From assembly GCA_027493775.1 (NCBI GenBank), contig JAOSKE010000001.1, forward strand, positions 741,651 to 805,650: a stretch of 64,000 nucleotides of DNA, read 5' to 3'. Source of the DNA: Kiritimatiellia bacterium. Its GTDB lineage: Bacteria; Verrucomicrobiota; Kiritimatiellia; CAIVKH01. Below are positions 26,667 through 64,000 of the stretch, in pieces (positions within the stretch are counted from its first letter, which is position 1; every line of letters starts with the position of its first letter). The notes beneath the pieces were generated by a model that ran no database searches, was not told the origin of the DNA, and saw only the letters and a program-made list of their open reading frames with translations. The translations under genes and the position numbers were made by a program.

Positions 26667-26713
26667 TTCGATACGCTATCTGATAGACTAGCTATTAGCA
26701 AGAGGAAATTATC

Positions 26714-28899: not shown

Positions 28900-28925
28900 G
28901 AATGTCGGTTCTGCTGAAAAACCCC

Positions 28926-29129: not shown

Positions 29130-29176
29130 TTCGATACGCTATCTGATAGACTAGCTATTAGCAAGAGGAAATTATC

Positions 29177-30826
29177 ATGAGTCTTCCGCCTGTCCAGCAA
29201 CAACGAAGTCTCTTTGAGGTCAACGTGCAATTCGCGGGCCTGTTCACGTCAGCGCCAGCGGATCGCTTTCGCTTCTTCAGCGACACGATCATGCCGCAAC
29301 TGCGCGAACTGCGCCCGCAACTTGAAGCGATGTATTGCGCGGACAATGGCCGCCCCGCCGAGGAACCCTCGCGGATGTTGGCCGTGTTGATCTTGCAATT
29401 CATGGAGGGACTGCCTGATCGCAAGGCGGTGGAGGGATGCACCTATGATCTGCGATGGAAGATGGCGCTATGGATGGAAACGGATGAAGCGGCCTTTCAC
29501 GCCACCAGCTTGGTGAAGTTTCGCAATCGGCTCCTGGAGCACAACCTCGTCGAGATCGGATTTGACGCCGTGCTCCAAGCCATGCGCAAGGCGGGTTATC
29601 TCAAGGCCCATAAAGCGCAGCGTCTGGACTCGACGCATGTCATCGGTTTGGTCAGCCACATGAGCCGATTGGAATGCGTTCGAGAGGCCATGCGGCTGGC
29701 GATGGAAGTATTGGCAGAGTTGCCCGAAAGCACACGTCCTGGATCATGGTCCCTGTGGTGGGAACGGTATGTGCAGAGCGCCTTGGACTTCAAAACGGAT
29801 GTAGAGACGCTCAAGCAGAAGATGACTCAGGCGGGCGAGGACGCCCGCGCGATCTTGGCATGGATCGAGACGCAGGTTGATGCGGTCAAAAGCATGAAGT
29901 CGGTGAGTGTTTTACGGCGGGTGTACGAGGAAAACTTTCAAGAAGTGGGCGGTCAGACCGAGCAGACCCACTCGCGACCGTCCGGTGCGGTATATAATCC
30001 GCACGACCCGGATGCGCAGTGGAGCGCCAAGGGGACTATCGCTGGCAAGAACAAGGAGTGGGTGGGTTACAAAGCCCAAATCGCGGAGACTCTGCCAAGC
30101 GCGAAGCCGGAGATGAAGGCGCCCACCGACGCGGTAATCACCGCCATGGTCACCCAACCAGCCATAACGAGCGATCACGGATCGATCTCGGATGTGGAAG
30201 AGGAGTGGAAGCGCGAAGATTTGGACAAGCCGAAAGAGCTTTATGTGGATGGCGGCTATATCTCCGGGGAGGCGCTGGCCGATGCGGGGCGTGAAGAGCG
30301 CGAGATTCATGGTCCCGTTCAACCGGCCCCGAAGCGCGGCGACCGCTTCAGCGCTGAGAGCTTTGACGTGGACATCGATCAGCGGGTGGCGATCTGCCCG
30401 GCCCGCCATGCCAGCACCAACTGCAGTCGCCTCGATGAAGTCAGTGGTAAGATCCACTACCGCTTCGAATGGAATAACCATCTCTGCCAAGCGTGTGAGC
30501 TTCGCAGCCGTTGCCTGGGAGCCAACCAACTCCATCGGACGCTACTGGTGGGTCAGTATCATCCACACATTCAGGCCCGTCGCCGCGAAATGAAAACGGG
30601 GGCGTTCAAAGAGCGGATGCACAAACGCAATGGGGTGGAAGGAACGATCAGCGAGTTAAAAAGAGGCTACGGACTGAGGCGGTGTCGGTATCGAGGGTTG
30701 ATAAAAACCAGTTTGCAAAATTACCTCATTGGGGCCGCCTGCAACATCAAGCGGTGGGCCCGCCGCTTGGCCTGGGAAGCGCTTGGAAATGATGAGATCG
30801 GAATAGATCAAGCAGTCAGGGCGTAA
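29177..30826 (+). CDS. IS5/IS1182-family DDE transposase, copy B (549 aa).
   Basis: Near-identical to 26714..28366, with a one-codon indel (ENFQEVGG versus ENFQQEVGG). Confidence 0.85.
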   Translation: MSLPPVQQQRSLFEVNVQFAGLFTSAPADRFRFFSDTIMPQLRELRPQLEAMYCADNGRPAEEPSRMLAVLILQFMEGLPDRKAVEGCTYDLRWKMALWMETDEAAFHATSLVKFRNRLLEHNLVEIGFDAVLQAMRKAGYLKAHKAQRLDSTHVIGLVSHMSRLECVREAMRLAMEVLAELPESTRPGSWSLWWERYVQSALDFKTDVETLKQKMTQAGEDARAILAWIETQVDAVKSMKSVSVLRRVYEENFQEVGGQTEQTHSRPSGAVYNPHDPDAQWSAKGTIAGKNKEWVGYKAQIAETLPSAKPEMKAPTDAVITAMVTQPAITSDHGSISDVEEEWKREDLDKPKELYVDGGYISGEALADAGREEREIHGPVQPAPKRGDRFSAESFDVDIDQRVAICPARHASTNCSRLDEVSGKIHYRFEWNNHLCQACELRSRCLGANQLHRTLLVGQYHPHIQARRREMKTGAFKERMHKRNGVEGTISELKRGYGLRRCRYRGLIKTSLQNYLIGAACNIKRWARRLAWEALGNDEIGIDQAVRA

Positions 30827-31152
30827 TACGCCATCCAAAAGAACGAAGGCGCGGGCAAAAATGAGCAATCGAACGAATACAGTATGGCAATGCGCATGCC
30901 ACCTCGCACGTTAAGTATGTGTTGTGGCGAAGCGACTGCATATAAGAATGCAGGTCTGTGAGCTTTTTTGAGTGATGAGTTTTTTAAAAGAGGGGTTTTT
31001 CAGCAGAACCGAATGTCTAGACTTGACCCCAATTCCCCTACTGCCGCGACCCCAATTCCCCGCCAATTCCCCGCGTAGCACGAGCGCCCGTCAGAACGCG
31101 AGTAGGTCCGAGGCCCGCACCAGTGGGCCGAGGTAACATGACATGCCAACGA

Positions 31153-35108: not shown

Positions 35109-35141
35109 GAGTTATTTTTCGGGTCTATTGGGGGTCTATTC

Positions 35142-35566
35142 GGGTCGAGTAAAGACATTTTCTATTTAGCGCCTTCTCGCAATACAGATAAACGCATACT
35201 CGTGACGAATAGGTAGCTGAGGCGGGCAAGTGAGGTCGGCCAATACGGTGCTGTTGTAGGCGGTTGTTCAAACGAGTTGTCACAGGGTCTGACGACGAGA
35301 GCGAAGCGAGGAGGGACTCAGGGAACGAGTCGAAGCCACAGCAAGAAAGTTCATACGGTTGCAACATGTCTAGTTTTCCACGATTTTGCGCCATAATACA
35401 GCCCGCAAACGAACCACGCAGTTAACCATCAACCCTCCCCAGATCGTTGTCAACACGCCTTTTGCCTTGGCCAAAATCACCGATCATGAGAATTGATCCC
35501 CACTCCCCCGTTTTGATTTTTGGACGCGAGAACACAAACCAAATGTCGAATGTCTAGACTTGACCC
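35142..35566. repeat. REP/BIME-like non-coding element (about 425 bp) bounded by the inverted 19-bp palindromic termini GGGGTCRAGTCTAGACATT … AATGTCTAGACTTGACCCC. Copy 1.
   Basis: Left terminus at 35142-35159 (degenerate: gggtcgagtaaagacatt). Right terminus at 35548-35566. The interior is conserved with copies at 55022-55446 and 63017-63393. GGTCTATTGGGG direct repeats precede the left end. Confidence 0.55.
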
Positions 35567-35998
35567 CAACTGCTCTAACTGCTCCGGTGTCTTATTTAAA
35601 GCGTTGTTCAAATATTTTATACATACCTCAATTAGCTTTAGTCGCTCATCTTGCGCATCTACTAAACACGTGCTCAACTCTGCAGTGGCAGAGGTAGGCC
35701 ACACCTTTAATACACCACGAACATTCGGGTTCAAATAGACCTCAATACGACGCATCATGACATCACCGCTGATCCAAGTTCCAAATATAGAACACAAAAA
35801 CCTAAACAGATAGCTGCCAGCGTATTCACGCAAATATGAACCGCGCATCTCTCTTACAAAATAACCGCGACCATACGCGAGCAGGGTTATCTGTTCTTGT
35901 GGTGTTGTCGCAGAATCAACGCCTACATCCTGCCATCCATGGCGCTTCTTAATAAATTTTATATTGCTAATCTCATTCACCCGGCTCACGCCCTTCAT
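35477..35998 (-). CDS. Immunity-protein candidate for the CT3 Rhs toxin. Reads through its normal stop because of a 1-bp deletion relative to the paralogue at 55470..55877.
   Basis: The first 134 aa ([28 protein letters not shown]…CIKYLNNA) are identical to the 135-aa copy at 55470..55877. An A-run (tttaaag versus tttaaaag) shifts the frame, so the ORF extends into the REP-like element. The gene is AT-rich compared with the Rhs core. Confidence 0.5.
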
Positions 35999-36905: not shown

Positions 36906-37619
36906 CTACTCCATCCCGTTCATCTCCCCTTGGCCATTACTGATGATCGCTTCGAACCACGATAGGTAATTCATAATGCCATGGCAGGCAATGGCAGGAT
37001 ATAGACTCTTATAGCGGTCATAAATCACTGTAATTGAAAAGATGAATATAACTCGAACAAGAAAACTCCGTACACTTGTTGTCGATGATAAGTGCATCAC
37101 CGAGTGTAGTAACGTAACAATTATCATACTCAGTGTTCTTCCCCAACGATCTCGCAAGGCTTGATAGATCATGCCTCGGTAAAGCATTTCTTCAGCAATA
37201 GGTGATGCCAATACACTGGTAAACCCGCGAACGGTTGTCAGCAGTATTACGCTTTTTATAAAGTGCTCGCCGGTGGAATCAAAAAGTATTGGGATCCTTA
37301 TAGCTGATGGAGAAACGACAACGTGTACAGTCAAGTATATGGCAAGACCAAGCACACCACCACGAATTAGGCCGCGACTGCGCTGCTCCCGCGTGAATCC
37401 AAGCAAATCCCACGTCGCAGAATGTCGGCGGAGTATTGTGCCGACTCCGACAAGGACCGCTACATCGTAAAGGAAAACGGCAACGTAGGGATTGTGTCGT
37501 AGTGAATTGCTGAAACAAACTGCGGTCCCTATCGTAACAACCAGCGCAAACGTCCACACAAAGGCGCAGTCACGTACAGACCATGGGACGCGATCGCCTG
37601 AGTGCGGAGTCGCGTTCAT
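36906..37619 (-). CDS. CPBP/Abi-family intramembrane metalloprotease (CAAX protease self-immunity). Immunity candidate for the CT2 orphan toxin.
   Basis: Polytopic membrane protein with the EEMLYRG (EExxxR) motif and HxxxH-like …LLHSVMH… It overlaps the stop of the 37616..39379 toxin gene. Confidence 0.65.
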   Translation of the reverse strand: MNATPHSGDRVPWSVRDCAFVWTFALVVTIGTAVCFSNSLRHNPYVAVFLYDVAVLVGVGTILRRHSATWDLLGFTREQRSRGLIRGGVLGLAIYLTVHVVVSPSAIRIPILFDSTGEHFIKSVILLTTVRGFTSVLASPIAEEMLYRGMIYQALRDRWGRTLSMIIVTLLHSVMHLSSTTSVRSFLVRVIFIFSITVIYDRYKSLYPAIACHGIMNYLSWFEAIISNGQGEMNGME

Positions 37620-39379
37620 TCATCCCCGAAATCCGGTTGGGTAAAGGAATCCAGAATGGGAGTGATTATATTCAACATGTCCACAGCTTGGTCTCCAGTC
37701 GCGGACGGGAGGCTGTCACGATACTCCTGGTATTGCTGATAGAAACCGAATGGAACACAGTCTGTGACATCCTTCCATGCATCGCAAAGACCTTTTCTTA
37801 CCTTGTCAATGGTGTCATCAATAAGATGGTAAATGATTTCAATTTCCTTTTTTGTCGAATCTATAATAATTTCTTGTATATCTTGAAAAAACAATTTAAC
37901 TTCTTCCCCTGTACCGTACGGATCAAATTTATTGACAGGATCGTTTCCAATATATACGTATAAATTCGCTTGTCCTCCCCGGAATAAAATAGGATCTTTA
38001 GCGAGCCAGCGACCCGTCGTTGGGTCATAATCCCGATAGCCGAACCGCGTCAGCCCGGTATCCGGATCGTACAGTCCACCCGCGAACCCGAACGGCTGAA
38101 AGCCCGGATTGCTGTCCTGTAGGACGTTCCCCCATTCGTCGTAGTCCAAGCGTTGCACCACATCGCCGCTGGCAACATCAATGACCAGCCGTACGCTCCC
38201 CAAGTGGTCCGTAATGATCCGATACACATTTCCGGTCGTCACCATATAGTCCGGCACATTTACCCTGGTGGCGTACACAAATCTGGCAACTACTTGATTA
38301 TTTGAGTTGACCTCCGCCGCCGGCGTCAGAAAGCCTTGATATACCCACCCTTTATTCAACACACCATTAACCTTCTTGCCCACGCGCCGCCCCAGCGGAT
38401 CCAAGAGATATTCGTATGTATTGGTCCCAACCCGTACCTCCATCAGGCTGCCCCGCGTATCATACCGCGTGGCTCGCGTCGGAACTGCTCCATACATATT
38501 GGTCACCTGACCGTTCGCATTGTACTGGTACTGAATCAGACCCCAGAAGCTGGCCGTCAGCCGATCCTGGGCATCGTATTGATATGTTCTCGATGATCCC
38601 GCAATCCAGCTATTAGTCCGGTTTCCATTGGCGTCATACCAGTACCGCGCGCGCAGGCTTCCATTGGTGTACACCTCGTGGAGTCGCCCCACGGAATCAT
38701 ACACATAGGCGTAATTGTTTGTGACGCCCTCGATTCTCTCCAACCGATTCGTGATCCGTCCCAGCTTGTCGTATGAGTAGTCCACGCCGTAATAGACGTA
38801 ATCGTTGTCGAATACAGCTTCGTATGAACTCATCTCTCCGAGGGCATTGTACTTCCGGCGGTCACCGATATCGCCGACGACGGCATTGGTCAACCAGCCG
38901 CTAACCGTATCGCGATATAGCGTCATCGTCCCTGCATTCGTCAACAATCCGTCCAGGTCATACCCATACGCAACCGCGCTACCGCCCAACTCGACGCTCG
39001 AAATCCGAAAGTCGTTGTTGTAGCTGTAGCTCATGCGCCCAGTGATTACACCGCTTTGCGTCAGGTTCGTCAACAGTCCTCCGTCATAACCGAAGATCAA
39101 GCTTGCCCCGTTGGTCGCGTAGATGCCGCCCAACCGCCCCCGTGCGAGTGCGTAAGCCGAGCATGGGGGCTTGGGGTCTGATCCCGCGCGCGCCGCACGC
39201 ATCGCAGGAGACATGCCAGTGCGTCGTCGCGCTGGCGCGGCTCCTGGGCGCGCGCGTCCGCCTGTGGCGAGCTTGTCGAGCCAGCGCGAGTGAGCGTACG
39301 CGAACGAGCATAACGAGCGACCAACGGGAGCGAGTAGCTCCGAGGGCCGCGCCAGCGGCCCGAGGCAAGAGACAATCAC
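37616..39379 (-). CDS. Orphan Rhs C-terminal module (YD repeats, Rhs core, and CT2 toxin domain). Rhs homology begins near 39190.
   Basis: From …CACGRLGGIYATNGASLIFGYDGGLLTNLTQSGVITGRMSYSYNNDF… onward it is about 85% identical to the main Rhs (39725..43631) through …[33 protein letters not shown]. Then comes a unique roughly 100-aa CT (…GTGEEVKLFFQDIQEIIIDSTKKEIEII…). The first roughly 85 aa of the ORF are out-of-frame GC-rich junk. Confidence 0.7.
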   Translation of the reverse strand: MIVSCLGPLARPSELLAPVGRSLCSFAYAHSRWLDKLATGGRARPGAAPARRRTGMSPAMRAARAGSDPKPPCSAYALARGRLGGIYATNGASLIFGYDGGLLTNLTQSGVITGRMSYSYNNDFRISSVELGGSAVAYGYDLDGLLTNAGTMTLYRDTVSGWLTNAVVGDIGDRRKYNALGEMSSYEAVFDNDYVYYGVDYSYDKLGRITNRLERIEGVTNNYAYVYDSVGRLHEVYTNGSLRARYWYDANGNRTNSWIAGSSRTYQYDAQDRLTASFWGLIQYQYNANGQVTNMYGAVPTRATRYDTRGSLMEVRVGTNTYEYLLDPLGRRVGKKVNGVLNKGWVYQGFLTPAAEVNSNNQVVARFVYATRVNVPDYMVTTGNVYRIITDHLGSVRLVIDVASGDVVQRLDYDEWGNVLQDSNPGFQPFGFAGGLYDPDTGLTRFGYRDYDPTTGRWLAKDPILFRGGQANLYVYIGNDPVNKFDPYGTGEEVKLFFQDIQEIIIDSTKKEIEIIYHLIDDTIDKVRKGLCDAWKDVTDCVPFGFYQQYQEYRDSLPSATGDQAVDMLNIITPILDSFTQPDFGDE

Positions 39380-39762
39380 CTAGCGCCAAGCGTAACATTC
39401 AAGGGCAAGACGGTGAACGCGGCAAAAACGACTGCAAGAATAACCAATAGAATGCCCGCGACTCGCAATGTGGCACTGTAATCGTGCGCGAAATGAATGC
39501 GCTGATTGACAACCCACAATAGAATTGACGCGGCCGCCAACACCCAAGGCAGGCACCACCAGACAGGCTGCATCACGTACAGCGAACCGGCCTTTTCTTC
39601 ATAAATTTCCAAAAGAAAAGGCCGAAGGCCGCGGACGAGAAACGCACACCCCAGCCAGAGCAACAACCCAAGAAAGGCAGAAGTCGAAATTGTTTGAATG
39701 TGTTTCAATGCGCGCTTCACAAAGTTACTTCTGTGGAGGATCGGGATCTGGTTTCTTGCCAC
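39376..39762 (-). CDS. Small membrane protein. Immunity candidate for the main Rhs CT1 toxin.
   Basis: 128 aa with 3 TM helices (…AFLGLLLWLGCAFLV…, …WWCLPWVLAAASILLWVV…, …GILLVILAVVFAAFTVL…). It overlaps the Rhs stop. Confidence 0.45.
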   Translation of the reverse strand: MARNQIPILHRSNFVKRALKHIQTISTSAFLGLLLWLGCAFLVRGLRPFLLEIYEEKAGSLYVMQPVWWCLPWVLAAASILLWVVNQRIHFAHDYSATLRVAGILLVILAVVFAAFTVLPLNVTLGAR

Positions 39763-42700
39763 ATCCTTGATCCTTCATTTGGTCCAGAATCCAGTCGATC
39801 AATCGTTGGTGCCGCCACACTTCGATCATTCCCCAGTAATTCCACTTATTGCCAGGCTGATCCAAAACAGCATCATCAACCTTATTCGCGATTTGGCCCA
39901 TAAGGTGGGCAAAACCTCCAAGAATAGATTCGCCGATGCTTTTCTCGAATTCGTTGATCACAGGGTCGGGGTGTCCAGAGGCGGGATTACCCGCTTGATA
40001 GCCTCCGACTTGGCTCGGCGGAACCCCCTGTTGTGCAACCTGCATCGCAATCGCTTGGCCTTCCTGGGCAAGACCAAGTGCGGTCTGCAATTCTTCGCAA
40101 GTGTAAAGGCCCCAGGGATCGATGTAGTTGATCGGGTCGCCGTAACAGTAAGCGTAGAGGTTCCAACCTCCTCTAAACAGGATGGGGTCTTTAGCGAGCC
40201 ACCTTCCAGTCATCGGATCATAATCGCGGTATCCGAACCGCGTCAGCCCGGTATCCGGGTCATACAGACCTCCCGCAAACCCGAACGGTTGGAATCCGGG
40301 GTTGGTGTCCTGCAACACGTTCCCCCACTCGTCGTAGTCCAACCGCTGAACCACCTCTCCGCTATCAACCTCAATGACCAGCCGCACGCTGCCCAAGTGG
40401 TCCGTGATGATCCGATACACATTCCCCGTCGTCTGCATGAAGTCCGGCACGTTTACCCGCGTCGCATACACGAACCGCGCCCGCAGGCTCCCGTCTGCGT
40501 TCAGTTCTGCGATCGGCCGCAGAAACGACTGGTAAATCCAGCCCCGCTCAAATTGGCCATTGACCTTCTTCCCAATGCGCCGCCCCAATGGATCGAGCAG
40601 GTATTCGATATCCGTTCCGTCGGGCAGTCCGACGAACGCCAAGCTGCCCCGCAGGTCGTAGTCATACGTGATGGTATCCCCGGAATTCGTGCTGAACTCG
40701 TCCACTGAAAAGTTCAACCAGCCGTTTGCGTGAAAATAGTTGGTCACCCCGCTGTACGAGGTCAACTGGTCCTGCTCGTTATACGTCCACTGGCGCGTCT
40801 GCCCCATCACCCAACTGCCGGTCCGGTTTCCATTCGCGTCATACCAGTACCGCGCACGCAGGCTTCCATTGGTGTACACCTCGTGGAGACGCCCAACAGA
40901 ATCATACACGTACGCATAGTTGTTTGTGGCGCCCTCGATTCTCTCCATCCGGTTCGTAATCCGCCCCAGTTTGTCGTATGAGTAGTCCACGCCGTAATAA
41001 ACGTAATCGTTGTCAAATACAGCTTCGTATGAACTCATTTCGCCAAAGCCATTGTACTGCCGCCGGTCGCTGATGTCGCCGACGACTGCGTTGGTCAGCC
41101 ATCCGCTCGCCGCGTCGCGGTACAACCTCATCCCTCCCGCATTCGTCAATAACCCGTCCGCGTCGTAGTTGTAGGCCGCGACGTTGCCACCGAATCCGAT
41201 CCCCGCCACCCGAAAGTCGTTGTTGTAGCTGTAGCTCATGCGGCCGGTGATTACACCGCTTTGCGTCAGGTTCGTCAATAGTCCTCCGTCATAACCGAAG
41301 ATCAAGCTCGCTCCATTGGTCGCGTAAATCCCGCCCAACCGCCCGCAGGCGCAGTCATAGACGTTGGTCACTTTGTTTTCCGGCCACTGAACACCAACCA
41401 GGAAGCCAGCCTGATTGTATTCGTTGGTGATTACGCGTCCATCAGGATACGAAATGCTCGTGAGATGGCGCGCTTCGTCCCAGGTCATCAACATGTTTGT
41501 CGGTCCGCCGACCGAAGGCGAGGAATAACGATCCAACAACCCCACGGCGGTGTAGCCCAACGTGTGCTCTGTCCTACCGGGCGGCGTTACCCCAATCGGG
41601 GCGGTTGTCGGCTGGGGTCTCAACCCGATTACAGAACTGTCGGGCAGCACAACATTCGTCACACGTCCAATAGCGTCTCCCCGCAACAATACCGATTCGT
41701 CCAATGCGTTGGTAAACGCAGCCCGAAAACCGTTTGTAGCATAGGCCAGATGCACGACCCGATTAGACTGTTGAATTTTACTCATACGGCCATAAACGTC
41801 ATAATCTACCGTCACAGGAATGATGCCGGGCATATTCCATTGAACGGGCCGCCACTGCGAATCGAATTCGACTGCGCTCGTCTTCCCCATCGGCGAAACA
41901 CTCTGTAGCGTACGATCAATGGAGCTGAAAACAACCTGTGAAGTCCGTCCATTTACCGTGATCCAGTTTGTAAACGAGAGCAGTTGGCTTGCCGGGTTGG
42001 TTGGAACGAGAAGCGAATATGACCTGCCGATGCGGATGTCGTTCGTCAATCCAGCAGGCGTACGCACCACAATTTGCGTCTCAACCATAACGGAGGAACC
42101 GAAGCGAGGATCAGCAACCGATCGGGTTAAGGTCACCATCCCATTGGGGCTGGTGACCTCGGAGGTCAGCCCGTCGGAACTGGTTCTGGTTCTCGTCACG
42201 GCGCCGGCTGAATTGATTGCTTCATCAACGCGGTCTCCATTCCAATCCGTAGATGAATTATAAACATTTGTCCGATTCAGCGAGTACGTATGTACAATAC
42301 TTTTTCGGTTATATACATTCGCTAGAGTCACCGCATCGAAGCCACCCGCCGGATCTTCCGCCCGCATGGCCTTGCCTTCGGCATCATAGGTGACCGCATA
42401 AACAAATCCTCGGCGCGAAACGATATTGGTGAGCAAACCCGATTCCGAGTATCGGAACAAGTTGGTTTCGCCGGCAGGATTAACCAATCCGGCGAGCCAC
42501 TCATTGCTGACAACAAGATCGGTCTTTAGCCCGAATGGCCCTATAATGGCGGTTACCTGCCCATTGGTCATTCTCACCAGCGTTGTGGTCAGGCTGTTTG
42601 CGTCAACGACCTCCGTCAACAGATTGTTCGTGTCGTACACGAACGTATAAATATCTGCTCCGGTCAGCGCATCGACCGTTCGTAAATGCCGCCCATCCGG

Positions 42701-43631
42701 ATCCAGGACATAGTATTCGCTGCCGTCCGTCGCAACGGCAGCAAATTCGTTTGTGGGCGGGGTATTGGTGATGGAGAAAGAACATTCGGCATATCCCACG
42801 GGCGCAATTTTTCGATCACGGCCTTGACCTTCATGTAGATACCCGCTTTTCCCGTCGTACGAATGATATAAATTGATCGTCCAGCCACCCAACCCCCGAG
42901 AGCTGGCGGGCAAAGCTCCGAGATAAGAAACATCCTTTTTTTTTGCGAGAGGTATACCAAGGGATAATCGGCCTCTGCCTCAGTTGATCTTCCGTATATA
43001 GTTCTGACTCTCCAGCTACAGAATACAAACCCGAACGCTCTGTAATCGGCTTGTTTACAATTGCATGCGGATCCAATACATATCCCCCGTCAATAGGGGA
43101 AATAGCGCCACGGCTGGAGGTGATAAATAGTCCTCCAGAATATCGTTCGCCGCTAACGTTTTCATATTCATCCAGCGTGAGTTTATCCATAAATATTGCA
43201 GTCGAGTCCACAACGGCTGGTGTTGTTCCATAAACAAAATTACTTTCGGCATCGCGACCATCCCACAAAAGGCTCCAATAGTGATTGGTGAATGGCGCCG
43301 CCTGTGTATGCCTGAATATGCGCCCGGCAATATTCACTGTTAACTCAACGGATATCATGTTGTTCGGAAATGTATTCGGGTCGGCATACCACACAACAAG
43401 GTTATACGCGGGCATATACCCGCGAGTTCTTCGGCTGGAATAGTGCAGCACAAAAGGCGTGCCTACAACCGGCATGTCTTCATGAAAGCTCGCATCGGAC
43501 AACACAATATATCCATAATTCGTGGGGGTGACGGGACTGTCGGGCGGGGTCTGTTTTGCGGCCCAGCCGTCTTGCGCAACGGCCCATACCACGCCAAGAA
43601 CGAGACCCATCAAGGAAAGGCGACGATTCAT
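39725..43631 (-). CDS. Rhs/YD-repeat polymorphic toxin (WapA-like, Sec signal peptide) with C-terminal toxin domain CT1. One frame break at an A9/T9 run.
   Basis: 42831..43631 is the N-terminus (signal peptide MNRRLSLMGLVLGVVWAVAQDGWAA). 39725..42913 carries many YD repeats (…GRITNRMERIEGATNNYAYVYDSVGRLHEVY…), the core …[33 protein letters not shown], and then a roughly 130-aa CT. The frames switch at the T9 run at 42936-42944 (…SRKKK…). Confidence 0.8.
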
Positions 43632-55000: not shown

Positions 55001-55021
55001 GATGATCCGTAACGTCTATTC

Positions 55022-55446
55022 GGGTCGAGTCTAGACATTTTACAGTTAGCGTCTTCTCGCAATACAGATGCACGTATATTCCGGGACGAACAGGTCGCTG
55101 AGGCGGGCGAGTGAGGTCGGTTAATGCGGTGCTGTTGTAAGCGGTTGTTCGAGCAAATTGTCACAGGGGTTAGTGACGAGAACGAGGCGAGGGACTCAGA
55201 GAGGTAGTCGAAACCACAGCAGGAAAGTTCATTCGGTTGCATCGCATCTACCCTTCCACGATCTCGCGTCATAATTCAGCCCGCAAACGAACCACGCAGT
55301 TAATCATCAACCCTCCGCCGCCTTAGGTCAACACGTCTTTTGTCTTGGCCAAAATCACCGATCATGAGAATTGATCCCCACTCCCCCGTTTTGATTTTTG
55401 GACGCGAGAACACAAACCAAATGTCGAATGTCTAGACTTGACCCCA
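55022..55446. repeat. REP/BIME-like element, copy 2 (GGGTCGAGTCTAGACATT … AATGTCTAGACTTGACCCC).
   Basis: Termini at 55022-55039 and 55428-55446. The interior is about 90% identical to 35142-35566. Confidence 0.55.
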
Positions 55447-55469
55447 ACTGCTCTAACTGCTCCGGTGTC

Positions 55470-55877: not shown

Positions 55878-57862
55878 TTTTTGGGGTTAGTTCATTTTCA
55901 ATTGCCTCTCGTGCGGTCTGCTCTAGAAGTGCTTTAATCGGATGAGCCAACAGCGTCTTTAGATTAGGCCCATCATTAATAAAATCTGCAATACCCTCAG
56001 AAGCGGGCCCCTCGCCCAGAAGTGTGGTCACAATCTTCCTGATAAGCTCTTCGCTTGCCTGAATCGCTTGCCCGGGAACCTTCAGTAGTTCTTTCGCTTG
56101 TTCTGCGAGTTGGGAGGCGACGTTGTCGTAAGCATCTACAAGATGCTCCCAAACCGCACCTGCAAAATTATTAAGCGTATATTCTCCAGCTTTCCAAGCC
56201 GCATCGCGTGGGTTCTCTCCCAACCCAAGCGGGTCGATATAATTGACCGGATCCCCATGACAGTACAGATACAGATTTGCCTGTCCGCCCCGAAACAGTA
56301 TGGGGTCTTTGGCCAGCCATCTCCCAGTCATCGGATCATAATCCCTGTAGCCAAATCGGACCAAGCCCGTGCCAGGGTCATACATACCTCCCGCGAACCC
56401 AAATGGCTGAAATCCCGGATTTGTGTCCTCCAGAACATTGCCCCATTCGTCGTAGTCCATCCGCTGCGCAACGGCGCCGGTCTGGGCATCCACAACCAGC
56501 CGCACGCTGCCAAGATGATCTGTAATGATCCGATATGTCGTTCCCGACCGCACCATATAGTCCGGCACATTCACTCGCGTCGCGTACACGAACCGGGACT
56601 TCACGCTTCCATCCGCATTCAACTCCGCAATCGGCTTCAGGAAGTCCTGATAGACCAGCCGTTGCACGGTCGTGCCATTCACACTCTTGGCGATGCGCCG
56701 CCCCAGAGGGTCAACGCTGTACCGAATCGCAGAAACCGTGGAGCTGACGGCAAGCAGGCTGCCCCGAGCGTCATAGCGGTATGCGGTTCCGACTCCGCCA
56801 ACGCTCTTGTTCGTCAGCGTGCCACGGTCATCATGCTGGTAGGTCGTCGCCCCGTAGCTCAACAGGCGATCCTGCGCGTCGTAGTGACCCACAAGCGACG
56901 ACCCGCTCAGTATGGCATTTGTGCGGTTCCCATTTGCGTCGTATTGATATTTTGCGCGCAGCGAACCATTGGTATGCACCTCAATCAGCCGCCCCGCCGC
57001 ATCATAGGAATAGGTGTATAGGTTCGTCTGATTCTGAATGCGCTCCACCCGGCTGGTCATCCGCCACATTGCATCGTACCCATAATCGAATGACAGCAGA
57101 TTTGTTCCGCCAAAATCACTGGCGGATGCCTGTAGCTCCCCAAATTTGCTAATTTGTCGCATATCGCTCACATCGCCCAGAACCGTGTTCGTCACAAACC
57201 CACTTGCGGCATCCCGATTCAGCCGCAATTGACCGGCATTGGTCAACAATAGATCAAGATCATAGCCGTATCCAATACCATCACCATTGAGCGTAATCTG
57301 GCTCAAGCGGAGGTCCGGACTCCATGCATACCCTACCCGTCCCGTGACAGAGCCACCCCCAGGTCACGTTTGTCAGCAGGCTGCCATCCCAGTCTAAAGC
57401 CAGAGAGGACCCGCTTGTGGCAACGATGGAAATCGGGTGCCCGTTTGCGTAGGCGACCGCAATCCGGTTCTCCGGCCACCGGACCTGACTCGCCTGCCCC
57501 GCCGCATTGTACTGGTTGGTGATGGTCGCCCCGCCCGGCAGCCGTATGCTCGTCACCTGGCGGCGCGCATTCCACGTGAGGAGAAGATTCGTGTCCACAC
57601 CAGCCAAGCCGGGGGCCGAATAGCGACCCAGAAGACCAACGTTGTTGTAGTCCATCTGATGTTCAGCCTTATCGGGCGGCCGTACTCCGCCCAGGTTGGA
57701 AGACTTGTCGTACCGCAGTCCGATGGTCTTCGCATCCGGTTGCAGCAGATTCGTGACCCGACCGGCGGGATCGGAATCCAGCCGGTACGACTGCAGCAAA
57801 CTGTTGGTGAGCGCGCCCCAAAATCCATTCGTTGTATAACCGAGTCCAAAAGCACGACGCAC
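55852..57862 (-). CDS. Rhs fragment (about 670 aa of YD repeats and core) ending in the CT3 toxin. One frame break at a C5 run.
   Basis: ORFs 57281..57862 and 55852..57306 abut. The paralogue 60837..63230 reads straight through the same region with cccc (62233-62236) where this copy has ccccc (57356-57360). Core …[35 protein letters not shown]…, then CT3 identical to 35973..36692. Confidence 0.7.
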
Positions 57863-57876
57863 AGCTCCAGTGTGTT

Positions 57877-58066
57877 TTGGGGTCGAGTCTAGACATTGTA
57901 CAGTTCGCCGCTTGTCTTTGAGATGGCCTCTCGATTGCGACCGCGCGACGTCACATGGTGCCGGACGCCTTCAATGTCAATTCTCAATGGCCTGCTCATA
58001 CCGATCTTGTATTCATTCTCGACACGTCGGCGCAAGCCACAATGTCGAATGTCTAGACTTGACCCT
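57877..58066. repeat. REP/BIME-like element, copy 3 (190 bp), whose interior is an inverted 5' fragment of the RAYT gene seen at 63440-63520.
   Basis: Termini GGGGTCGAGTCTAGACATT (57877-57895) and AATGTCTAGACTTGACCC (58047-58065). The reverse complement of the interior (…caagatcggtatgagcaggccattgagaattgacattgaaggcgtccggcaccatgtgacgtcgcgcggtcgcaatcgagaggccatc…) matches 63405-63500. Confidence 0.5.
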
Positions 58067-58119
58067 AACTACTCTCAACATCACTGCTGTCCAAAACGCG
58101 CGAAAGTCTGACGAAAGAG

Positions 58120-59475
58120 GGGCCCTATTCCCTGAAAAAAGCATCGTTGGGTCGTTTGCGCAAAACCGATCCCCCCCCTTTTATGAAGGACATGGGTTCT
58201 GCTGTCCAAGATCGAGTTCCCAGAACTCAGCTTGAACGAAAGGGGGCGGAAACGGCGGTGTTTCATAGGGACGCTCGATCCAGACCCACAAGTCCCGGTA
58301 GGTGAAAAGGTTCAGCCGCAGCAGCGCCACGAGGTTGGAGAGGTGCCAGCCGCATTTGGATTTGAACTGCAGGTACTTGATCAGGAGTATGGCGATCAAT
58401 GCTGTCCAAATCTGGATATGCACCGCGTTGGCGGAGGTGCCGACGAAGGTCTTGATGCGGAGATTCTGCTTGAGGTCCTTGAAGAACAGTTCGATCTGCC
58501 AGCGGGCTTTGTAGATCTGGGCGATGGTGGATGCGGCCAGATGCAGATTGTTGGTGAGAATCACCAGTTCCTCCTGTTTGTCTTCCCGCCAGACCGTGAT
58601 CCGGCGGTACTGCCTTTTGATCCGCCGTCCAGCCTGAAAGACGTGAAACTCCCCGATCTCATCGGCGCGGACGGGTGAGTCGGCAGGCACCTCGCGCGAC
58701 TCGGTGCGATACCAGTCGGCGTGCTTCTTCATCCGTGTCACGAAGAACACGCCCTCGGCGCTCCAGCGCTCAAAAAGGTGGTAATCCACATAGGCGCGGT
58801 CCATGACCACGATACTGCCCTTGGGCAACGGTAAACCCCGAGCAGTCTTTAACTCGTGCTCACGACCCTCGGTGATATGCGCAAAGACCGGAAGACAGCC
58901 GTCATGGTCCAAAAGAAGGTGCATCTTTACCGCCCCTTTGGTCTGGCGGTATTTCGCCCAGTCGAATGCGGAAGCACACAGGTCAATCACCGTGGCATCG
59001 AGGCTCATCAGTTTGTTTTTGAAGCGGAATGGCTTGCCTGGGGCGACCGCCCGACAGGTTCCAAGCAGATCGTAGAAGAGCCGTTGAAAAAGCTGCCAGG
59101 GGCGATGTTGGTTCGCGTAGGCCAGCGTCGAGCGCGCCGGACCGACACTCATCCCCAGATGGGATAGTCGGCCTTCACAACATTGCAGACCCTGCGTGAT
59201 CTCCCGGAGACTGCGACTGTTGGTGAGCTGGCAGAAGAGCATGGCCACAAACTGATCCCAGCAACTGAAGCCCTTCGATCGGTACTCGGCATTCACCTCG
59301 CGCACGTGGTGCGAAAAGTCATTCCGGTTGAAAAGGGAAAGCAGTTGGCTGAACAGACTGGCCTTGTGTGCGCTCATCTTGCGGGGTCTCCTGGTCGGGC
59401 TTGTTGGATATTTTCACCTTCAGCCTACCTCCAGACCCCGTTTCTAAAAACTTGTTTTGGACACTACTGTCTCAA
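58120..59475 (-). mobile_element. IS4-family insertion sequence (boundaries approximate).
   Basis: Contains the transposase 58181..59377. The 5' flank sequence is shared with the truncated copy at 52125-52345. Confidence 0.55.
58181..59377 (-). CDS. IS4-family DDE transposase (398 aa).
   Basis: …VVMDRAYVDYHLFERW…, …LVILTNNLHLAASTIAQIYKARWQIELFFKDLKQNL… matches the IS4 YREK signature. Confidence 0.85.
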   Translation of the reverse strand: MSAHKASLFSQLLSLFNRNDFSHHVREVNAEYRSKGFSCWDQFVAMLFCQLTNSRSLREITQGLQCCEGRLSHLGMSVGPARSTLAYANQHRPWQLFQRLFYDLLGTCRAVAPGKPFRFKNKLMSLDATVIDLCASAFDWAKYRQTKGAVKMHLLLDHDGCLPVFAHITEGREHELKTARGLPLPKGSIVVMDRAYVDYHLFERWSAEGVFFVTRMKKHADWYRTESREVPADSPVRADEIGEFHVFQAGRRIKRQYRRITVWREDKQEELVILTNNLHLAASTIAQIYKARWQIELFFKDLKQNLRIKTFVGTSANAVHIQIWTALIAILLIKYLQFKSKCGWHLSNLVALLRLNLFTYRDLWVWIERPYETPPFPPPFVQAEFWELDLGQQNPCPS

Positions 59476-59656: not shown

Positions 59657-60298
59657 CTAAAACGAGGATTCATTACGTCTCGCTTCGATCTCCGTAATCA
59701 TGCCATTTACAAGCCGCCGAATATCACCGCTTTCGTCGTATTTGATATTTTCAAGATATTGACTGCGACTTTCAGAATTGGTGCCCACAAAGTAGAGCGC
59801 GACGCCCAAACAGGCTTTAATGCGACCATCGCTATTTCTATATCGTTCTTCCAACTCAGCGATATTATTCGTGGGCCGGGTTAGCGCTAACGCAATAGAG
59901 AGTTCACGCTGTACCTGCCAATATTCTTCCGTTTGGACAAGCGCCAATAGGTCTGGCTCTACCGTTCCGTCTCGGAACCTACCCAGTGATTGCACGGCGA
60001 AAAAACGAATGCGCCAAGAAGGGTTCGCCAGTTGCGATACTAAAATCGGAACTGCATCCGCCTCTGTGCGCCGCCCCAAATACTGCATCGCCATGATCGA
60101 GACCGTCTCATTTGTATCGCGAACGAGATCAACAATATCGTCAGTGTGGATGATGGAGGAATGTAAATTTGTGAGAACCGAAATATCATCAGTCATCAAT
60201 AGTTCACGTAATTCATCTTTAGATATACGCTTAGAACAAGCCGTGCCTATAAATATCGCGCAAATTACTGCGCCGAGAAGCATTCCTTTTTGATTCAT
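59657..60298 (-). CDS. HEAT-repeat lipoprotein. Possible immunity or accessory protein of the CT5 module.
   Basis: Lipobox MNQKGMLLGAVICAIFIGTAC|S. PBS-lyase/HEAT-like repeats (…DAVPILVSQLANPSWRIRFFAVQSLGRFRDG…). AT-rich. Confidence 0.45.
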   Translation of the reverse strand: MNQKGMLLGAVICAIFIGTACSKRISKDELRELLMTDDISVLTNLHSSIIHTDDIVDLVRDTNETVSIMAMQYLGRRTEADAVPILVSQLANPSWRIRFFAVQSLGRFRDGTVEPDLLALVQTEEYWQVQRELSIALALTRPTNNIAELEERYRNSDGRIKACLGVALYFVGTNSESRSQYLENIKYDESGDIRRLVNGMITEIEARRNESSF

Positions 60299-60571
60299 CT
60301 ATCGGGTACGCCTTCTTGGCAGGTCTCTATATGGATTTCCCGGTGGAGGCCTATTGCCGAAATCAACACCCGAATCAAGCTCCTCAAACATATCGTAACT
60401 AATTGCATTATCGTTTAATAGCTCTACGTATGTCTCTGTAAATGTCGTAATCCCTTCAGTTACGGCGATTGGGCCACTCGGTGATGGATTAATCCAGAAC
60501 AGATTGACCGCGTCTGCACCAGTTGGCATAACCAATGCTGTTGGTTGGCGCGTGGCTTCATTGCTACTCAT
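60299..60571 (-). CDS. Hypothetical small protein (90 aa).
   Basis: ORF only, between the membrane protein and the lipoprotein, in the same orientation with start/stop overlaps. Confidence 0.3.
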   Translation of the reverse strand: MSSNEATRQPTALVMPTGADAVNLFWINPSPSGPIAVTEGITTFTETYVELLNDNAISYDMFEELDSGVDFGNRPPPGNPYRDLPRRRTR

Positions 60572-60789
60572 AAAGCACGATCACCGCTTACCTTGTTCTT
60601 GGTCGTGACCAACGTATTTATCAAAGCGACAATATCTTGTTGCAGACTTAGCCTAATGAATTGACACGCGCAGACCTGAAGACCAGCAGCAGACAAGATC
60701 ATAAAGACAAACCCCTCCACCACATTATGCCCGCTAACACTCACAACAAGAGCGGCCAAGAACATAAAACTAAATATAATCGCAGCCAA
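60568..60789 (-). CDS. Small two-TM membrane protein. Immunity candidate for the glycine-zipper CT5 toxin.
   Basis: 73 aa, MAAIIFSFMFLAALVVSVSG … FVFMILSAAGLQVCACQFI. It is the first gene downstream of the Rhs fragment. Confidence 0.35.
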   Translation of the reverse strand: MAAIIFSFMFLAALVVSVSGHNVVEGFVFMILSAAGLQVCACQFIRLSLQQDIVALINTLVTTKNKVSGDRAL

Positions 60790-60836
60790 TGTGGCGGTGA
60801 TATATTTTTTCTAATCGCTCTATTATCTATCATTAA

Positions 60837-63230
60837 TCACTTGAGGCGAGGAGTTGATGTTACCAAGGGATATGGCTCGAAGTTGATTAAATCATTTACT
60901 TCAATCAAATGATCCGCAACTGGTCCGTCACGCCAGTTGTCTACGACATCATCGATCTGATCAGGAACAGTTAACAGCTCCCAGATACCAAATATGACGA
61001 GTACAGCACCACCACCGATTACCAAAGGAAGACTTCCGATGGCCGCACCGCCACCAGCTACAATGCCTCCAAGCGCAGAAACAATTCCCTGCCATAGCAG
61101 CCCATTGGGATCAATATAGTTAATTGGATCCCCGTGGCAATAGAGGTACAGGTTGGCTTGGCCTCCTTCAAACAAGATAGGGTCTTTGGCCAGCCACCTC
61201 CCAGTCATCGGAGCATAATCGCGGTATCCGAACCGCGTCAGACCCGTGTCTGGGTCGTATAAACCTCCCGCAAACCCGAACGGCTGGAATCCCGGATTGG
61301 TGTCCTGCAACACGTTCCCCCATTCGTCGTAGTCCATCTGCTGCGCAACCGCGCCGGTCTGGGCATCCACAACCAGCCGCACGCTGCCAAGATGATCTGT
61401 AATGATCCGATATGTCGTTCCAGAACGCACCATATAATCCGGTACATTCACTCGCGTAGCGTACACGAACCGGGACTTCACGCTTCCATCCGCATTCAAC
61501 TCCGCAATCGGCTTCAGGAAGTCCTGATAGACCAGCCGTTGCACGGTCGTGCCATTCACACTCTTGGCGATGCGCCGCCCCAGAGGGTCAACACTGTACC
61601 GAATCACAGAAACCGTGGAGCTGACGGCAAGCAGGCTGCCCCGAGCGTCATAGCGGTATGCGGTTCCGACTCCGCCAACGCTCTTGTTCGTCAGCGTGCC
61701 ACGGTCGTCATACTGATATGTCGTCGCCCCGTAGCCCAACAGGCGATCCTGCGCGTCGTAGTGGCCCACAAGCGACGACCCGCTCAGTATGGCATTTGTG
61801 CGATTCCCATTTGCGTCGTATTGATATTTCGCGCGCAGCGAACCATTGGTATGCACCTCAATCAGCCGCCCCGCCGCATCATAGGAATAGATGTATAGGT
61901 TCGTCTGATTCTGAATGCGCTCCACCCGGCTGGTCATCCGCCACATTGCATCGTACCCATAATCGAATGACAGCAGATTGGTTCCGCCAAAATCACTGGC
62001 GGATGCCTGTAGCTCCCCAAACTTGCTAATTTGTCGCATATCGCTCACTTCGCCCAGCACCGTGTTCGTCACAAACCCACTTGCCGCATCCCGATTCAGC
62101 CGCAATTGACCGGCATTGGTCAACAATAAATCAAAATCATAGCCGTATCCAATGCCATCACCATTGAGCGTAATCCGGCTCAAGCGGAGGTCCGGACTCC
62201 ATGTATAGCCTACCCGTCCCGTGACAGAGCCACCCCAGGTCACATTTGTCAGCAGGCTGCCATCCCAGCCTAAAGCCAGAGAGGGCCCGCTTGTGGCAAC
62301 GATGGAAATCGGGTGCCCGTTTGCGTAGGCGACCGCAATCCGGTTCTCCGGCCACCGGACCTGACTCACCTGCCCCGCTGCATTGTACTGGTTGGTGATG
62401 GTCGCCCCGCCCGGCAGCCGTATGCTCGTCACCTGGCGGCGCGCATTCCACGTGAGGAGAAGATTCGTGTCCACCCCAGCCCAGCAGGGTGCCGAATAGC
62501 GACCCAGAAGACCAACGTTGTTGTAGTCCATCTGATGTTCAGCCTTATCGGGCGGCGTCACCCCGCTCAGATTGGAGGACTTGTCGTACCGCAGTCCGAT
62601 GGTCTTCGCATCCGGTTGCAGCAGATTCGTGACCCGACCGGCGGGATCGGAATCCAGCCGGTACGACTGCAGCAAACTGTTGGTGAGCGCGCCCCAAAAT
62701 CCATTCGTTGTATAACCGAATCCAAAAGCACGACGCACACCTCCAGTGCCGATCGCGAACTGCTGCAACCGACCGTGAACATCATATGCAACATCGATGG
62801 GATACAACCCCGGTAGCTCTATCCGCTCCGCGCGCCCGTTTGCATTATAGATTACCCTGCGGGTTCTGCCCTCGGGACTCGTCAGCGACGCCATTCGATT
62901 CGACGCCTGATACGACGCTACATACGCTGGTCGGTCATTAATGCTGAAGACATTCGTGAAGGAAACGAGGCTTAACACGTCACCGGGATCCGACAACGAG
63001 GCGGCTCGGGATCTATTGGGGTCGAGTCTAGACATTTTATATTTAGCGCCTTCTCGCAATACAGATAAACGCATATTCGGGACGAATAGGTAGCTTAGGG
63101 GGTTGTTCGAGCAAGTTGTCACTGGGTTTGGTGACGAGAATAAGGCGATGGACTCAGAGTAGGAGTCGAAGCCACAGCAAGAAAGCTCATTCTGTTGCAA
63201 CATGTCTAGCTTCCCACGATCTTGCGCCAT
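60837..63230 (-). CDS. Rhs fragment (about 700 aa of YD repeats and core) with a glycine-zipper, membrane-type CT5 toxin domain. The ORF initiates inside the REP-like element and reads across its terminus.
   Basis: The N-terminal roughly 60 aa (MAQDRGKLDMLQQNELSCCGFDS…[12 protein letters not shown]) are encoded by element 63017-63393; MSRLDP is the translated palindrome AATGTCTAGACTCGACCCC. The Rhs body is about 97% identical to 55852..57862. The C-terminus …[71 protein letters not shown]… is a GxxxG-rich hydrophobic tip. Confidence 0.7.
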   Translation of the reverse strand: MAQDRGKLDMLQQNELSCCGFDSYSESIALFSSPNPVTTCSNNPLSYLFVPNMRLSVLREGAKYKMSRLDPNRSRAASLSDPGDVLSLVSFTNVFSINDRPAYVASYQASNRMASLTSPEGRTRRVIYNANGRAERIELPGLYPIDVAYDVHGRLQQFAIGTGGVRRAFGFGYTTNGFWGALTNSLLQSYRLDSDPAGRVTNLLQPDAKTIGLRYDKSSNLSGVTPPDKAEHQMDYNNVGLLGRYSAPCWAGVDTNLLLTWNARRQVTSIRLPGGATITNQYNAAGQVSQVRWPENRIAVAYANGHPISIVATSGPSLALGWDGSLLTNVTWGGSVTGRVGYTWSPDLRLSRITLNGDGIGYGYDFDLLLTNAGQLRLNRDAASGFVTNTVLGEVSDMRQISKFGELQASASDFGGTNLLSFDYGYDAMWRMTSRVERIQNQTNLYIYSYDAAGRLIEVHTNGSLRAKYQYDANGNRTNAILSGSSLVGHYDAQDRLLGYGATTYQYDDRGTLTNKSVGGVGTAYRYDARGSLLAVSSTVSVIRYSVDPLGRRIAKSVNGTTVQRLVYQDFLKPIAELNADGSVKSRFVYATRVNVPDYMVRSGTTYRIITDHLGSVRLVVDAQTGAVAQQMDYDEWGNVLQDTNPGFQPFGFAGGLYDPDTGLTRFGYRDYAPMTGRWLAKDPILFEGGQANLYLYCHGDPINYIDPNGLLWQGIVSALGGIVAGGGAAIGSLPLVIGGGAVLVIFGIWELLTVPDQIDDVVDNWRDGPVADHLIEVNDLINFEPYPLVTSTPRLK

Positions 63231-63393
63231 AATTCAGCCCGCAAACAAAACACGCGGTTAATCATCAGCCCTCCGCCGCTCGCTGTCAACACAGACCTAA
63301 ACCACCGATAACAAGAATTCATCCCCATTCCCCCGTTTTGATTTTTGGACGTGAGAGCACAGGCGCAAATGTCGAATGTCTAGACGTGACCCC
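63017..63393. repeat. REP/BIME-like element, copy 4, directly adjacent to the RAYT gene.
   Basis: Termini GGGGTCGAGTCTAGACATT (63017-63035) and AATGTCTAGACGTGACCCC (63375-63393). The interior is conserved with copies 1 and 2. Confidence 0.55.
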
Positions 63394-63462
63394 ATCTGCT
63401 CTGAAAACAAGATCGGCATGAGCAGACCATTGAGAATCGACATTGAAGGTGGGTGGATCATG

Positions 63463-64000
63463 TGACGTCGCGCGGTCACAATCGCGAGGCCATCTATCGA
63501 GACACAAAGGATCGAGCGCATTTCCTCGATCTGCTGGAACAGCTGAGCGAGCAGCATCGCATAGAGATTCATGCGTACGTGTTGATGACGAACCATTATC
63601 ATCTTTTAGTGCGTAGCCCTGAAGCCAACCTGAGCCGGGCGCTTCAATGGCTGAATGTCAGCTACAGCATCTGGTGGAATCGTCGCCACGGGCGGTGTGG
63701 CAGTGTGTTCCAGGGCCGATTCAAGGCGGCGCTTGTTGAGGGCGGGGCTTGGCTTCTGTCGCTGAGTCAGTATATCCATTACAATCCCGTGGCCGTGAAG
63801 GGATTGGGCTTGAGTAAGCAGGGCAAGGCGCTTGAGGGACGCGGCTGGGCGACGCCGACGGCGGAAATGGTCGCGATGAGATTGAAGGGATTACGAGAAT
63901 ATCGCTGGAGTTCCTATCCGGCGTATGTCGGCTATGCAAAGCCGCCAGCGTGGTTGAATACCAAAGAAGTGCTGGCCCGAGTGAAGGGCGGAAGGCGGGG
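63463..64000 (+). CDS. Y1 HuH transposase of the REP-associated type (RAYT / TnpA_REP, IS200-like superfamily). Partial: runs off the window end.
   Basis: GTG start. …IEIHAYVLMTNHYHLLVRSPEANLSRALQWLNVSYSIWWNRRHGRCGSVFQGRFKAALVEGGAWLLSLSQYIHYNPVAVKGL…YRWSSYPAYVGY… shows the HuH motif (HYH), the GxxWQGRFK block and the YIHxNPV block characteristic of RAYTs such as E. coli YafM. No stop before 64000. Confidence 0.7.

Follow-up and report, generated by a model that had tools for sequence, protein, structure and literature searches.

Described systems and the present locus

Orphan Rhs modules of Salmonella, Escherichia coli and Dickeya are arrayed units, each made of a 5'-truncated core running to a PxxxxDPxGL motif, a variable toxin and one or more immunity genes (PMC3967940; PMC7043789). 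Here we analyzed such a module in a 64,000-nucleotide (nt) stretch of the Kiritimatiellia bacterium contig JAOSKE010000001.1 (positions 741,651 to 805,650; this whole stretch is "the window", and coordinates count from its first letter), where a palindromic element and a truncated Rhs gene share one open reading frame (ORF) of 797 amino acids (aa). A preliminary description of this DNA had offered two readings of the element: a portable start cassette that reactivates 5'-truncated Rhs genes, or a place where leaderless Rhs fragments are spliced on by recombination. Our analysis supports the recombination-junction reading and does not support the start cassette. By its termini, the element is a miniature inverted-repeat transposable element (MITE) of an IS1182-type insertion sequence (IS); it probably marks the 5' break point of the Rhs fragment, the 797-aa ORF most likely being a by-product of rearrangement.

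Classical orphans are found directly downstream of an rhs gene of full length, and at their 5' ends they have scars of recombination within the core rather than transposon termini. In Salmonella, orphan toxins are transcribed and translated from internal sites, with no cap needed (PMC7043789), and orphan Rhs toxins can be activated by recombination with the main gene (PMC3967940). Cluster A of the window (35973-42913) has the classical orphan layout.

MITEs that donate promoters and start codons are already documented: in MITEAba12/ISAba12 of Acinetobacter, outward sigma-70 promoters are predicted, one of them backed by a transcript, and outward codons of its terminal inverted repeats (TIRs) give the first residues (MQQS) of neighboring coding sequences (CDSs), with up to 19 aa fused (PMC6382973), while QMITE1 of Coxiella carries sigma-70 promoters, overlaps ORFs and adds in-frame peptide segments (PMC5896051). 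MITEAba12 is a 113-bp element of the IS5 family with 9-bp target duplications and stops in all six frames (PMC6382973), unlike the present element, which is 390-445 bp long, has an outward ORF of 73-96 codons and no detected target duplication, and lies at Rhs break points. Like MITEAba12, it is non-autonomous and has its TIRs in common with a co-resident IS. The Correia elements of Neisseria and the Rickettsia palindromic elements are also MITEs that overlap ORFs, add in-frame peptides and carry promoters. Such elements, QMITE1 included, are mostly internal or 3' insertions in intact genes, whereas here the whole 5' part is replaced. Specific to this case are the family of the IS, its host phylum, an outward ORF of such size and the three consecutive capped Rhs fragments.

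Adjacent deletions and inversions and outward or hybrid promoters are known from IS1, IS10, IS903 and ISAba1. The locus resembles IS adjacent deletions in that one break point lies at an IS terminus while the other varies, with nested variants (the window against metagenome contig L045), and it resembles IS outward promoters in that neighboring genes may be activated; unlike in those known cases, the mechanism is one that we infer for the IS here, and recombination between copies is equally possible. In E. coli Rhs loci, H-rpt (ISAs1 family) is habitual among core extensions and orphan fragments. The present IS likewise lies among Rhs fragments but belongs to another family, and H-rpt lies downstream of the fragments; to our knowledge H-rpt has not been reported to cap their 5' ends.

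The element, its copies and the insertion sequence

The junction comprises the following features:

63012..63402, minus strand: MITE M63, about 390 bp, the palindromic element of the preliminary description
63018..63036, minus strand: left TIR of M63, 19-mer core; its outward ATG (63035-63033) reads MSRLDP
63375..63393, plus strand: right TIR of M63, 25 nt upstream of the start codon of a gene for a REP-associated tyrosine transposase (RAYT)
60837..63230, minus strand: mechanically called ORF of 797 aa, with 73-74 MITE codons (63012-63230) fused in frame to about 723 Rhs codons
60837..63011, minus strand: Rhs-derived part, with YD-shell from the equivalent of aa 297 (of ORF 39725..42913), Rhs-associated core and C-terminal domain
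60837..62996, minus strand: NCBI CDS MCZ7591309.1, 719 aa, "RHS repeat-associated core domain-containing protein", TTG start

The ORF had been described as starting at an ATG within the element, crossing the 19-mer as MSRLDP and continuing in frame into Rhs sequence, and this held when we re-read it from the sequence (N-terminus MAQDRGKLDMLQQNELSCCGFD; predicted junction peptide LDPNRSR/AASLSDPGDVLSLVSFTNVFSINDRPAYVASYQASNR; marker peptide for the element-encoded part of the putative fusion MAQDRGKLDMLQQNELSCCGFDSYSESIALFSSPNPVTTCSNNPLSYLFVPNMR). Rhs homology starts at the first base beyond the element, with position 63008 matching residue 297 of ORF 39725..42913, the Rhs shell, and the junction region is uninterrupted (...SANVSRAASLSDTGDV...) in P0015, a same-genome paralog 94% identical. 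The Rhs codons comprise the Rhs core, the C-terminal toxin region and the stop, in an intact reading frame (60837-63011). The Rhs-associated core (TIGR03696 match, aa 634-711) ends in GDPINYIDPNGL; 60837..63011 thus has the PxxxxDPxGL-type core motif followed by a divergent C-terminus that mark an orphan Rhs module. The C-terminal domain of about 86 aa is glycine-rich, hydrophobic and unrelated to the Rhs paralogs, identity to which ends at aa 711. The start chosen by NCBI for this gene, TTG 62996, lies 15 nt outside M63.

The 19-mer AATGTCTAGACTCGACCCC is exact at 63018-63036 (minus strand) and has an inverted partner with two mismatches at 63375-63393; its core, AATGTCTAGACATT, is a perfect palindrome, and the element-end sequence of the family is GGGGTCNNGTCTAGACATT. 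With up to three mismatches allowed, 12 copies of the 19-mer were found in the window, against 0.03 expected by chance. The preliminary description had also pointed to MSRLDP in ORFs 57669..57896, 57896..58111 and 35520..35738; the ORF translations confirm it in all of these, and the peptide recurs because the repeat contains ATG TCT AGA CTC GAC CC. The 19-mer makes up the outer portion of the TIRs, 41 bp long, that bound a 2.15-kb IS; two copies of this IS lie in the window:

26422..28571, plus strand: IS_A, full-length IS1182-type IS bounded by 41-bp TIRs; its DDE transposase (550 aa) is encoded at 26714..28366
about 28907..31033, plus strand: IS_B, second copy (98% identity with IS_A), which has lost its left TIR where it meets a partial right end (28601-28906) head to head

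The 550-aa transposase ORFs match DUF772, DDE_Tnp_1 and DDE_Tnp_1_6 (DUF772 and DDE_Tnp_1_6 pass in Pfam), and the best family match is NF033551 (IS1182), with E 1.6e-79 and 268 bits against a curated cut-off of 270. The identical transposase with the same TIRs was found on four other metagenome contigs with different flanks, and the copy on L042 abuts an Rhs gene. IS_A is likely the autonomous partner of the MITEs. Moreover, an 18-mer of the TIR bounds mini-elements of 68-130 bp in many metagenome-assembled genomes (MAGs) of the PVC group and beyond (Planctomycetia, Verrucomicrobiota, Armatimonadota and others), which indicates a family of transposon ends widespread across distant phyla.

Besides M63, the window holds two further MITE copies and another TIR-bounded element:

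55015..55454, minus strand: MITE M55; left end abuts Rhs fragment R54 (54359-55014) in outward frame b, not in the MAQ/MSRLDP frame
35134..35576, minus strand: MITE M35; left end with reiterated tip, 15-25 nt upstream of an intact LTD/TSP3 gene
57870..58074, minus strand: S57, TIR-bounded, carrying a 36-codon RAYT 5' fragment; left end abuts Rhs fragment 55852-57869

A fourth MITE copy (L043m) was found on metagenome contig L043. The four copies (390-445 bp, 71-91% mutually identical) have no transposase gene and agree with the IS in their termini only (about 27-42 bp including the 19-mer core), the interiors being unrelated; small size (less than about 600 bp), TIRs matching those of a same-genome IS and multiple dispersed copies are the marks of a MITE. 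An exact 22-mer scan of the genome contigs found no further copy, and a 20-mer scan of the metagenome contigs gave five loci, none with a MITE.

Element ends coincide with Rhs break points

The splicing alternative is supported, as break points fall to the base at element termini, both here and on related metagenome contigs. Each of three consecutive Rhs fragments (54359-63011) has an IS1182-type end as its cap, and element ends cap at least four other Rhs fragments than the one studied here, at differing positions of the Rhs core and with junctions that vary between strains: five Rhs junctions map to aa 93, 297, 385, about 433 and about 880 of the reference ORF 39725..42913. Same-genome Rhs fragments also lie beyond the window (MCZ7591317, -321 and -322).

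Several comparisons place the break points at element ends. A 1.5-kb duplication (55014-56535 and 35134-36656, 95% identical), which includes a MITE, an immunity-like gene, a toxin end and part of the core, stops exactly at the left terminus of the MITE; past that end the two copies run into unrelated DNA, one into an Rhs fragment and the other into the intact LTD/TSP3 gene (1143 aa, ATG 35108). On contig L045, from another sample, the S57 element is 100% identical over 184 nt and is joined to Rhs 144 nt deeper, and L045 and the window thus appear as nested junctions flush with the S57 terminus. Moreover, contig L042 has the IS against a 3'-truncated Rhs gene; on L043 a MITE lies 8-9 nt upstream of an immunity-like gene that on L042 is preceded by an Rhs toxin; and L051 carries a MITE-less allele of the LTD gene, in which homology to the window begins 15 nt upstream of the ATG and the DNA upstream of that is unrelated. 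The MITE copies themselves are mosaic (M55 against M35: right part 94% identical, left part 79-81%; M35 against L043m: center 100%, right part 87%), pointing to recombination between copies.

Two other IS-capped Rhs fragments are frameshifted: 55852-57862 near 57306-57360, and 54359-55073 near 54870-54900.

While the break points are read directly from the DNA, the processes behind them we infer. The IS1182-type element and its MITEs would have populated the Rhs region, where the transposase may have made the junctions through intramolecular events, deleting or inverting adjacent DNA from an element end onward; alternatively or additionally, homologous recombination between dispersed copies may have done so. 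Such events would chop and shuffle the Rhs core, toxin and immunity modules and leave a series of 5'-truncated Rhs fragments, each with an element-end cap. If the module is expressed, starts within the Rhs part, as annotated, would be more likely than the fused start; read-through or element-borne transcription serving the downstream immunity genes would be another option. On this reading, orphan-like Rhs fragments in this Kiritimatiellae genome can come from transposon ends, beyond the classical route of recombination and displacement.

Reading frames and start codons at the junctions

The repeat leaves the element with two of its three outward frames free of stops:

Outward frame a, ATG TCT AGA... 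= MSRLDP: open
Outward frame b, TGT CTA GAC... = CLDST: open
Outward frame c, AAT GTC TAG: closed by the TAG of the repeat
M63 junction, frame a: element supplies the MAQ ATG (63230) and the TIR ATG (63035)
M55 junction, frame b: element supplies a GTG only, 17 codons upstream of the junction
S57 junction, frame b: element supplies no start codon
L045 junction, frame b: element supplies no start codon
P0015 junction (outside the window), frame a: element supplies the TIR ATG; NCBI start MSRLDPKTH...

The distribution of frames over the five Rhs junctions is at chance level: frame a was used in two of five (about 1.7 expected) and frame c in none (chance probability (2/3)^5 = 0.13). With an outward ATG in the repeat and two of three frames stop-free, long ORFs that start in the element would arise at about the chance rate. 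On the by-product reading they are annotation traps, one of which NCBI has already taken by starting a paralog at the repeat ATG.

As for the start cassette, the preliminary description had itself named frameshifts between copies, with this one copy alone in frame, as the contrary case, and this is what the copies have: only M63 has its internal MAQ-ORF continuing in frame into Rhs. At M55 a different frame carries Rhs and a GTG alone is available, S57 gives no start, and the NCBI start of the gene studied here lies outside the element.

The internal ORF had further been called conserved. This holds for its beginning, an ATG and about 45 in-frame codons being present in all copies (M63, MAQDRGKLDML; M35, MAQNRGKLDML; M55, MTRDRGRVDAM), and fails downstream, where indels change the frame: 38 nt of M55, M35 and L043m are missing from M63, and M55 has one extra base. 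Thus the last ~25 codons are in one frame in M63 and M55, giving the MSRLDP reading, and in another in M35 and L043m, giving ...YCEKALNRKCLYSTRIDPQ followed by a stop (KCLYSTRIDPQ, stop); in M35 the ORF stops at 35125. Identity among the copies is 79-84% in the ORF part, against 83-94% in the non-coding part upstream. Purifying selection, which a dN/dS comparison (nonsynonymous against synonymous change) had been proposed to reveal, was not convincingly detected: pN/pS was 0.43-0.70 over 45 codons (Fisher p 0.05-0.34), with three effective MITE copies giving this test and the shuffle test below little power. A Pfam scan of the ORF gave no family, and it has no similarity to the 67-aa outward ORF of the IS. 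A search with the 73-aa element peptide returned no homolog, which is a weak negative, as the same word-indexed search did not return MCZ7591309.1, present in the collection, nor -317 and -321, despite 94-100% identity to the query. On these sequence comparisons, the internal MITE ORF is not a gene.

The fused product could hardly be a deliverable toxin, to judge by Rhs and teneurin architecture, since it is without an FN-plug (encoded in cluster A at 42831..43631), about 300 aa of the shell and an export signal.

Alternative explanations

Several observations weigh against a break-point marker as the whole account of M63. In all four MITE copies a promoter-like box and an ORF are aimed at the adjacent same-strand gene, and in two cases, where that gene is intact, its ATG follows only 8-25 nt downstream of the junction. 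The closed frame c holds no Rhs junction, and the paralog MCZ7591321.1, outside the window, is annotated from the TIR ATG (MSRLDPKTH...). Every copy keeps an ATG-ORF of at least 73 codons out of its left end despite the indels, although an ATG-ORF of at least 60 codons leaves the left end in just 3-5% of composition-matched shuffles (the copies not being independent), and every copy pair gives a pN/pS under 1 for the first 45 codons; this retention is a faint hint of a gene, not evidence for one. Finally, no direct repeat flanks any copy, the flanks being unrelated or rearranged, so that a history of simple insertion is not reconstructable; the outermost 6-9 nt of the element ends are conserved or reiterated where a target duplication would be. 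Target duplications in the IS1182 family are of variable kind, and their absence is therefore weakly informative.

The box bears on the possibility that the MITE is an outward expression cassette, whose promoter and stop-free leader would drive adjacent Rhs, immunity or other genes, with the fused ORF incidental or part of the leader. Upstream of 63230, where the preliminary description had suggested looking for -35/-10 motifs, one sigma-70-like box was indeed found, at chance frequency and with two of the four copies at the scan threshold:

63261..63289, minus strand: sigma-70-like motif TTGACA-17-GATGAT, pointing to the left end of M63

This is the sole such match in 62800-63700 (0.8 expected by chance). 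The box is conserved in M55 (TTGACC/GATGAT), which passes the scan, and the surrounding block is nearly invariant in the four copies; the M35 and L043m versions (GATGGT) fail. Such conservation allows a putative outward promoter, and the two intact genes at which the junction lies so close to the ATG have no native upstream DNA; MITEAba12 (PMC6382973) and Coxiella QMITE1 (PMC5896051) are precedents. On the other hand, one promoter-like match per 700-900 nt compares with 0.7-0.8 in shuffles, the -10 is poor, the scan used a sigma-70 consensus rather than one from Kiritimatiellae, transcripts could come equally well by read-through from same-strand genes upstream, and the four copies are few and not all independent. 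We consider such a cassette unlikely. If it were true, truncated toxin-immunity modules would be kept alive by a mobile promoter and leader, with a bearing on the maintenance of polymorphic-toxin arrays. A stronger version, in which the IS1182-type ends would be a selected head-piece (box, stop-free leader and TIR ATG) that restores transcription and sometimes translation after truncation, is quite improbable; it would make possible an internal, toxin-antitoxin-like expression of Rhs fragments that cannot be delivered. A functional translational fusion, in which the element would give the start and N-terminus and a truncated Rhs toxin would be made inside the cell as with the Salmonella Rhs toxin/immunity pairs, appears very improbable. 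Its 797-aa frame is uninterrupted, the absence of junctions in the closed frame and the second same-genome fragment annotated from the TIR ATG agree with it, and Salmonella orphan Rhs toxins are expressed internally (PMC7043789). Yet expression in Salmonella relies on internal promoters and on starts close to the toxin domain rather than on a 5' cap (PMC7043789), the frames at the junctions are at chance level, those of M55, S57 and L045 have no element ATG, the N-terminal peptide is not conserved, no recognizable Shine-Dalgarno sequence precedes 63230 or 63035, and a shell without its plug and first third would be unlikely to fold.

Two further explanations concern what the repeat is and whether the junction is real. 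The perfect palindrome in the 19-mer, a RAYT gene whose start is 25 nt away from the right repeat and another RAYT fragment within 57870-58074 recall a repetitive extragenic palindromic (REP) sequence, with the element as a REPIN-like doublet mobilized by the adjacent RAYT. Yet the repeats are the outer part of 41-bp termini that move with a DDE transposase into unrelated flanks, including an Rhs gene, the elements span 200-450 bp with paired inverted ends rather than hairpins of 20-40 nt, and the adjacent RAYT is frameshifted; we rejected REP/REPIN membership, which has a minimal probability, because a DDE-transposase IS has these repeats as its termini and carries them along. A chimeric join at the repeat during assembly might be suspected in a MAG with many near-identical Rhs paralogs and IS copies, where several window ORFs are frameshifted and the M63/Rhs junction itself was recovered in no independent contig. 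It is nonetheless barely credible, as junctions of the same classes recur in independent short-read contigs (L045 is 100% identical over 184 nt across S57, L047-L050 cross from an immunity gene into the right end of a MITE, L043 holds a complete MITE), and the window lies in a 1.4-Mb contig. We retain the IS1182-type MITE marking the 5' break point as the probable account of M63.

Neighboring genes and additional observations

The studied fragment is preceded directly by M63 and then by the RAYT gene, and is followed by three small ORFs, among which HEAT_2 is the only family match:

63418..64000, running off the window, plus strand: RAYT gene (Y1_Tnp, NF047646), frame broken after codon 14
59657..60789, minus strand: three small ORFs (73-aa membrane protein, 90-aa protein, 213-aa HEAT-repeat protein), candidate immunity genes

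The RAYT fragment inside S57 (57900-58030, minus strand) is diverged, and its arrangement is 100% identical in contig L045. An Rfam scan of 54000-64000 gave no RNA family match.

The repeat also occurs as GGGGTC(N2)GTCTAGACATT at L002, L005, L018, L025 and L026 (Planctomycetia MAG), L006 and L022 (Verrucomicrobiota) and L017 (Armatimonadota). Divergent from its transposase, the IS has an ORF of 67 aa directed towards the left repeat (26463-26666, minus strand, in the window; 791-994 in L042), which gene callers predict in three metagenome contigs and which is without a family match.

IS and MITE ends alike have their outermost 9-12 nt tandemly reiterated just outside the repeat (26394-26423 and 28566-28600; also 35121-35140, and 35568-35585 / 55446-55463): the left tip reads GGTCTATTggtt GTCTATTgcg GTCTATT/GGGGTC and the right tip CCCC/AACTGCTCCCCC AACTGCTCCCC AACTGCT. 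Among the possible explanations are several binding sites for the transposase, abortive events that recurred and preferential insertion beside the element's own tip. At head-to-head junctions of IS ends (28896-28911 in the window, 1990-2005 in L045) the palindromic core of both repeats is deleted (AACCGAATGTC/GGTTC and AACCGA/CATTCGAC), which looks like loss of an abutted inverted-repeat junction.

An IS4-family element (58075-59460; 398-aa transposase, 58181..59377) lies directly beside an IS1182-type right repeat, and a 159-bp piece of its other end (52146-52304, 97% identical) adjoins a solo repeat at 52100-52140; this arrangement suggests site targeting or rearrangement between both places.

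In cluster A, the large teneurin-like/Rhs gene (39725-50403, minus strand) is split into four consecutive ORFs of 2042 aa (LamG, TSP3 repeats), 216 aa, 266 aa (FN-plug) and 1062 aa (YD-shell), with an out-of-frame overlap of 83 nt between the FN-plug ORF and the shell ORF, which is either a real frameshift or an error of sequencing. After the Rhs fragment 37616..39379 comes a CPBP membrane protein (CAAX protease/Rce1-like; 36906-37619, minus strand), which is probably the immunity gene of that fragment.

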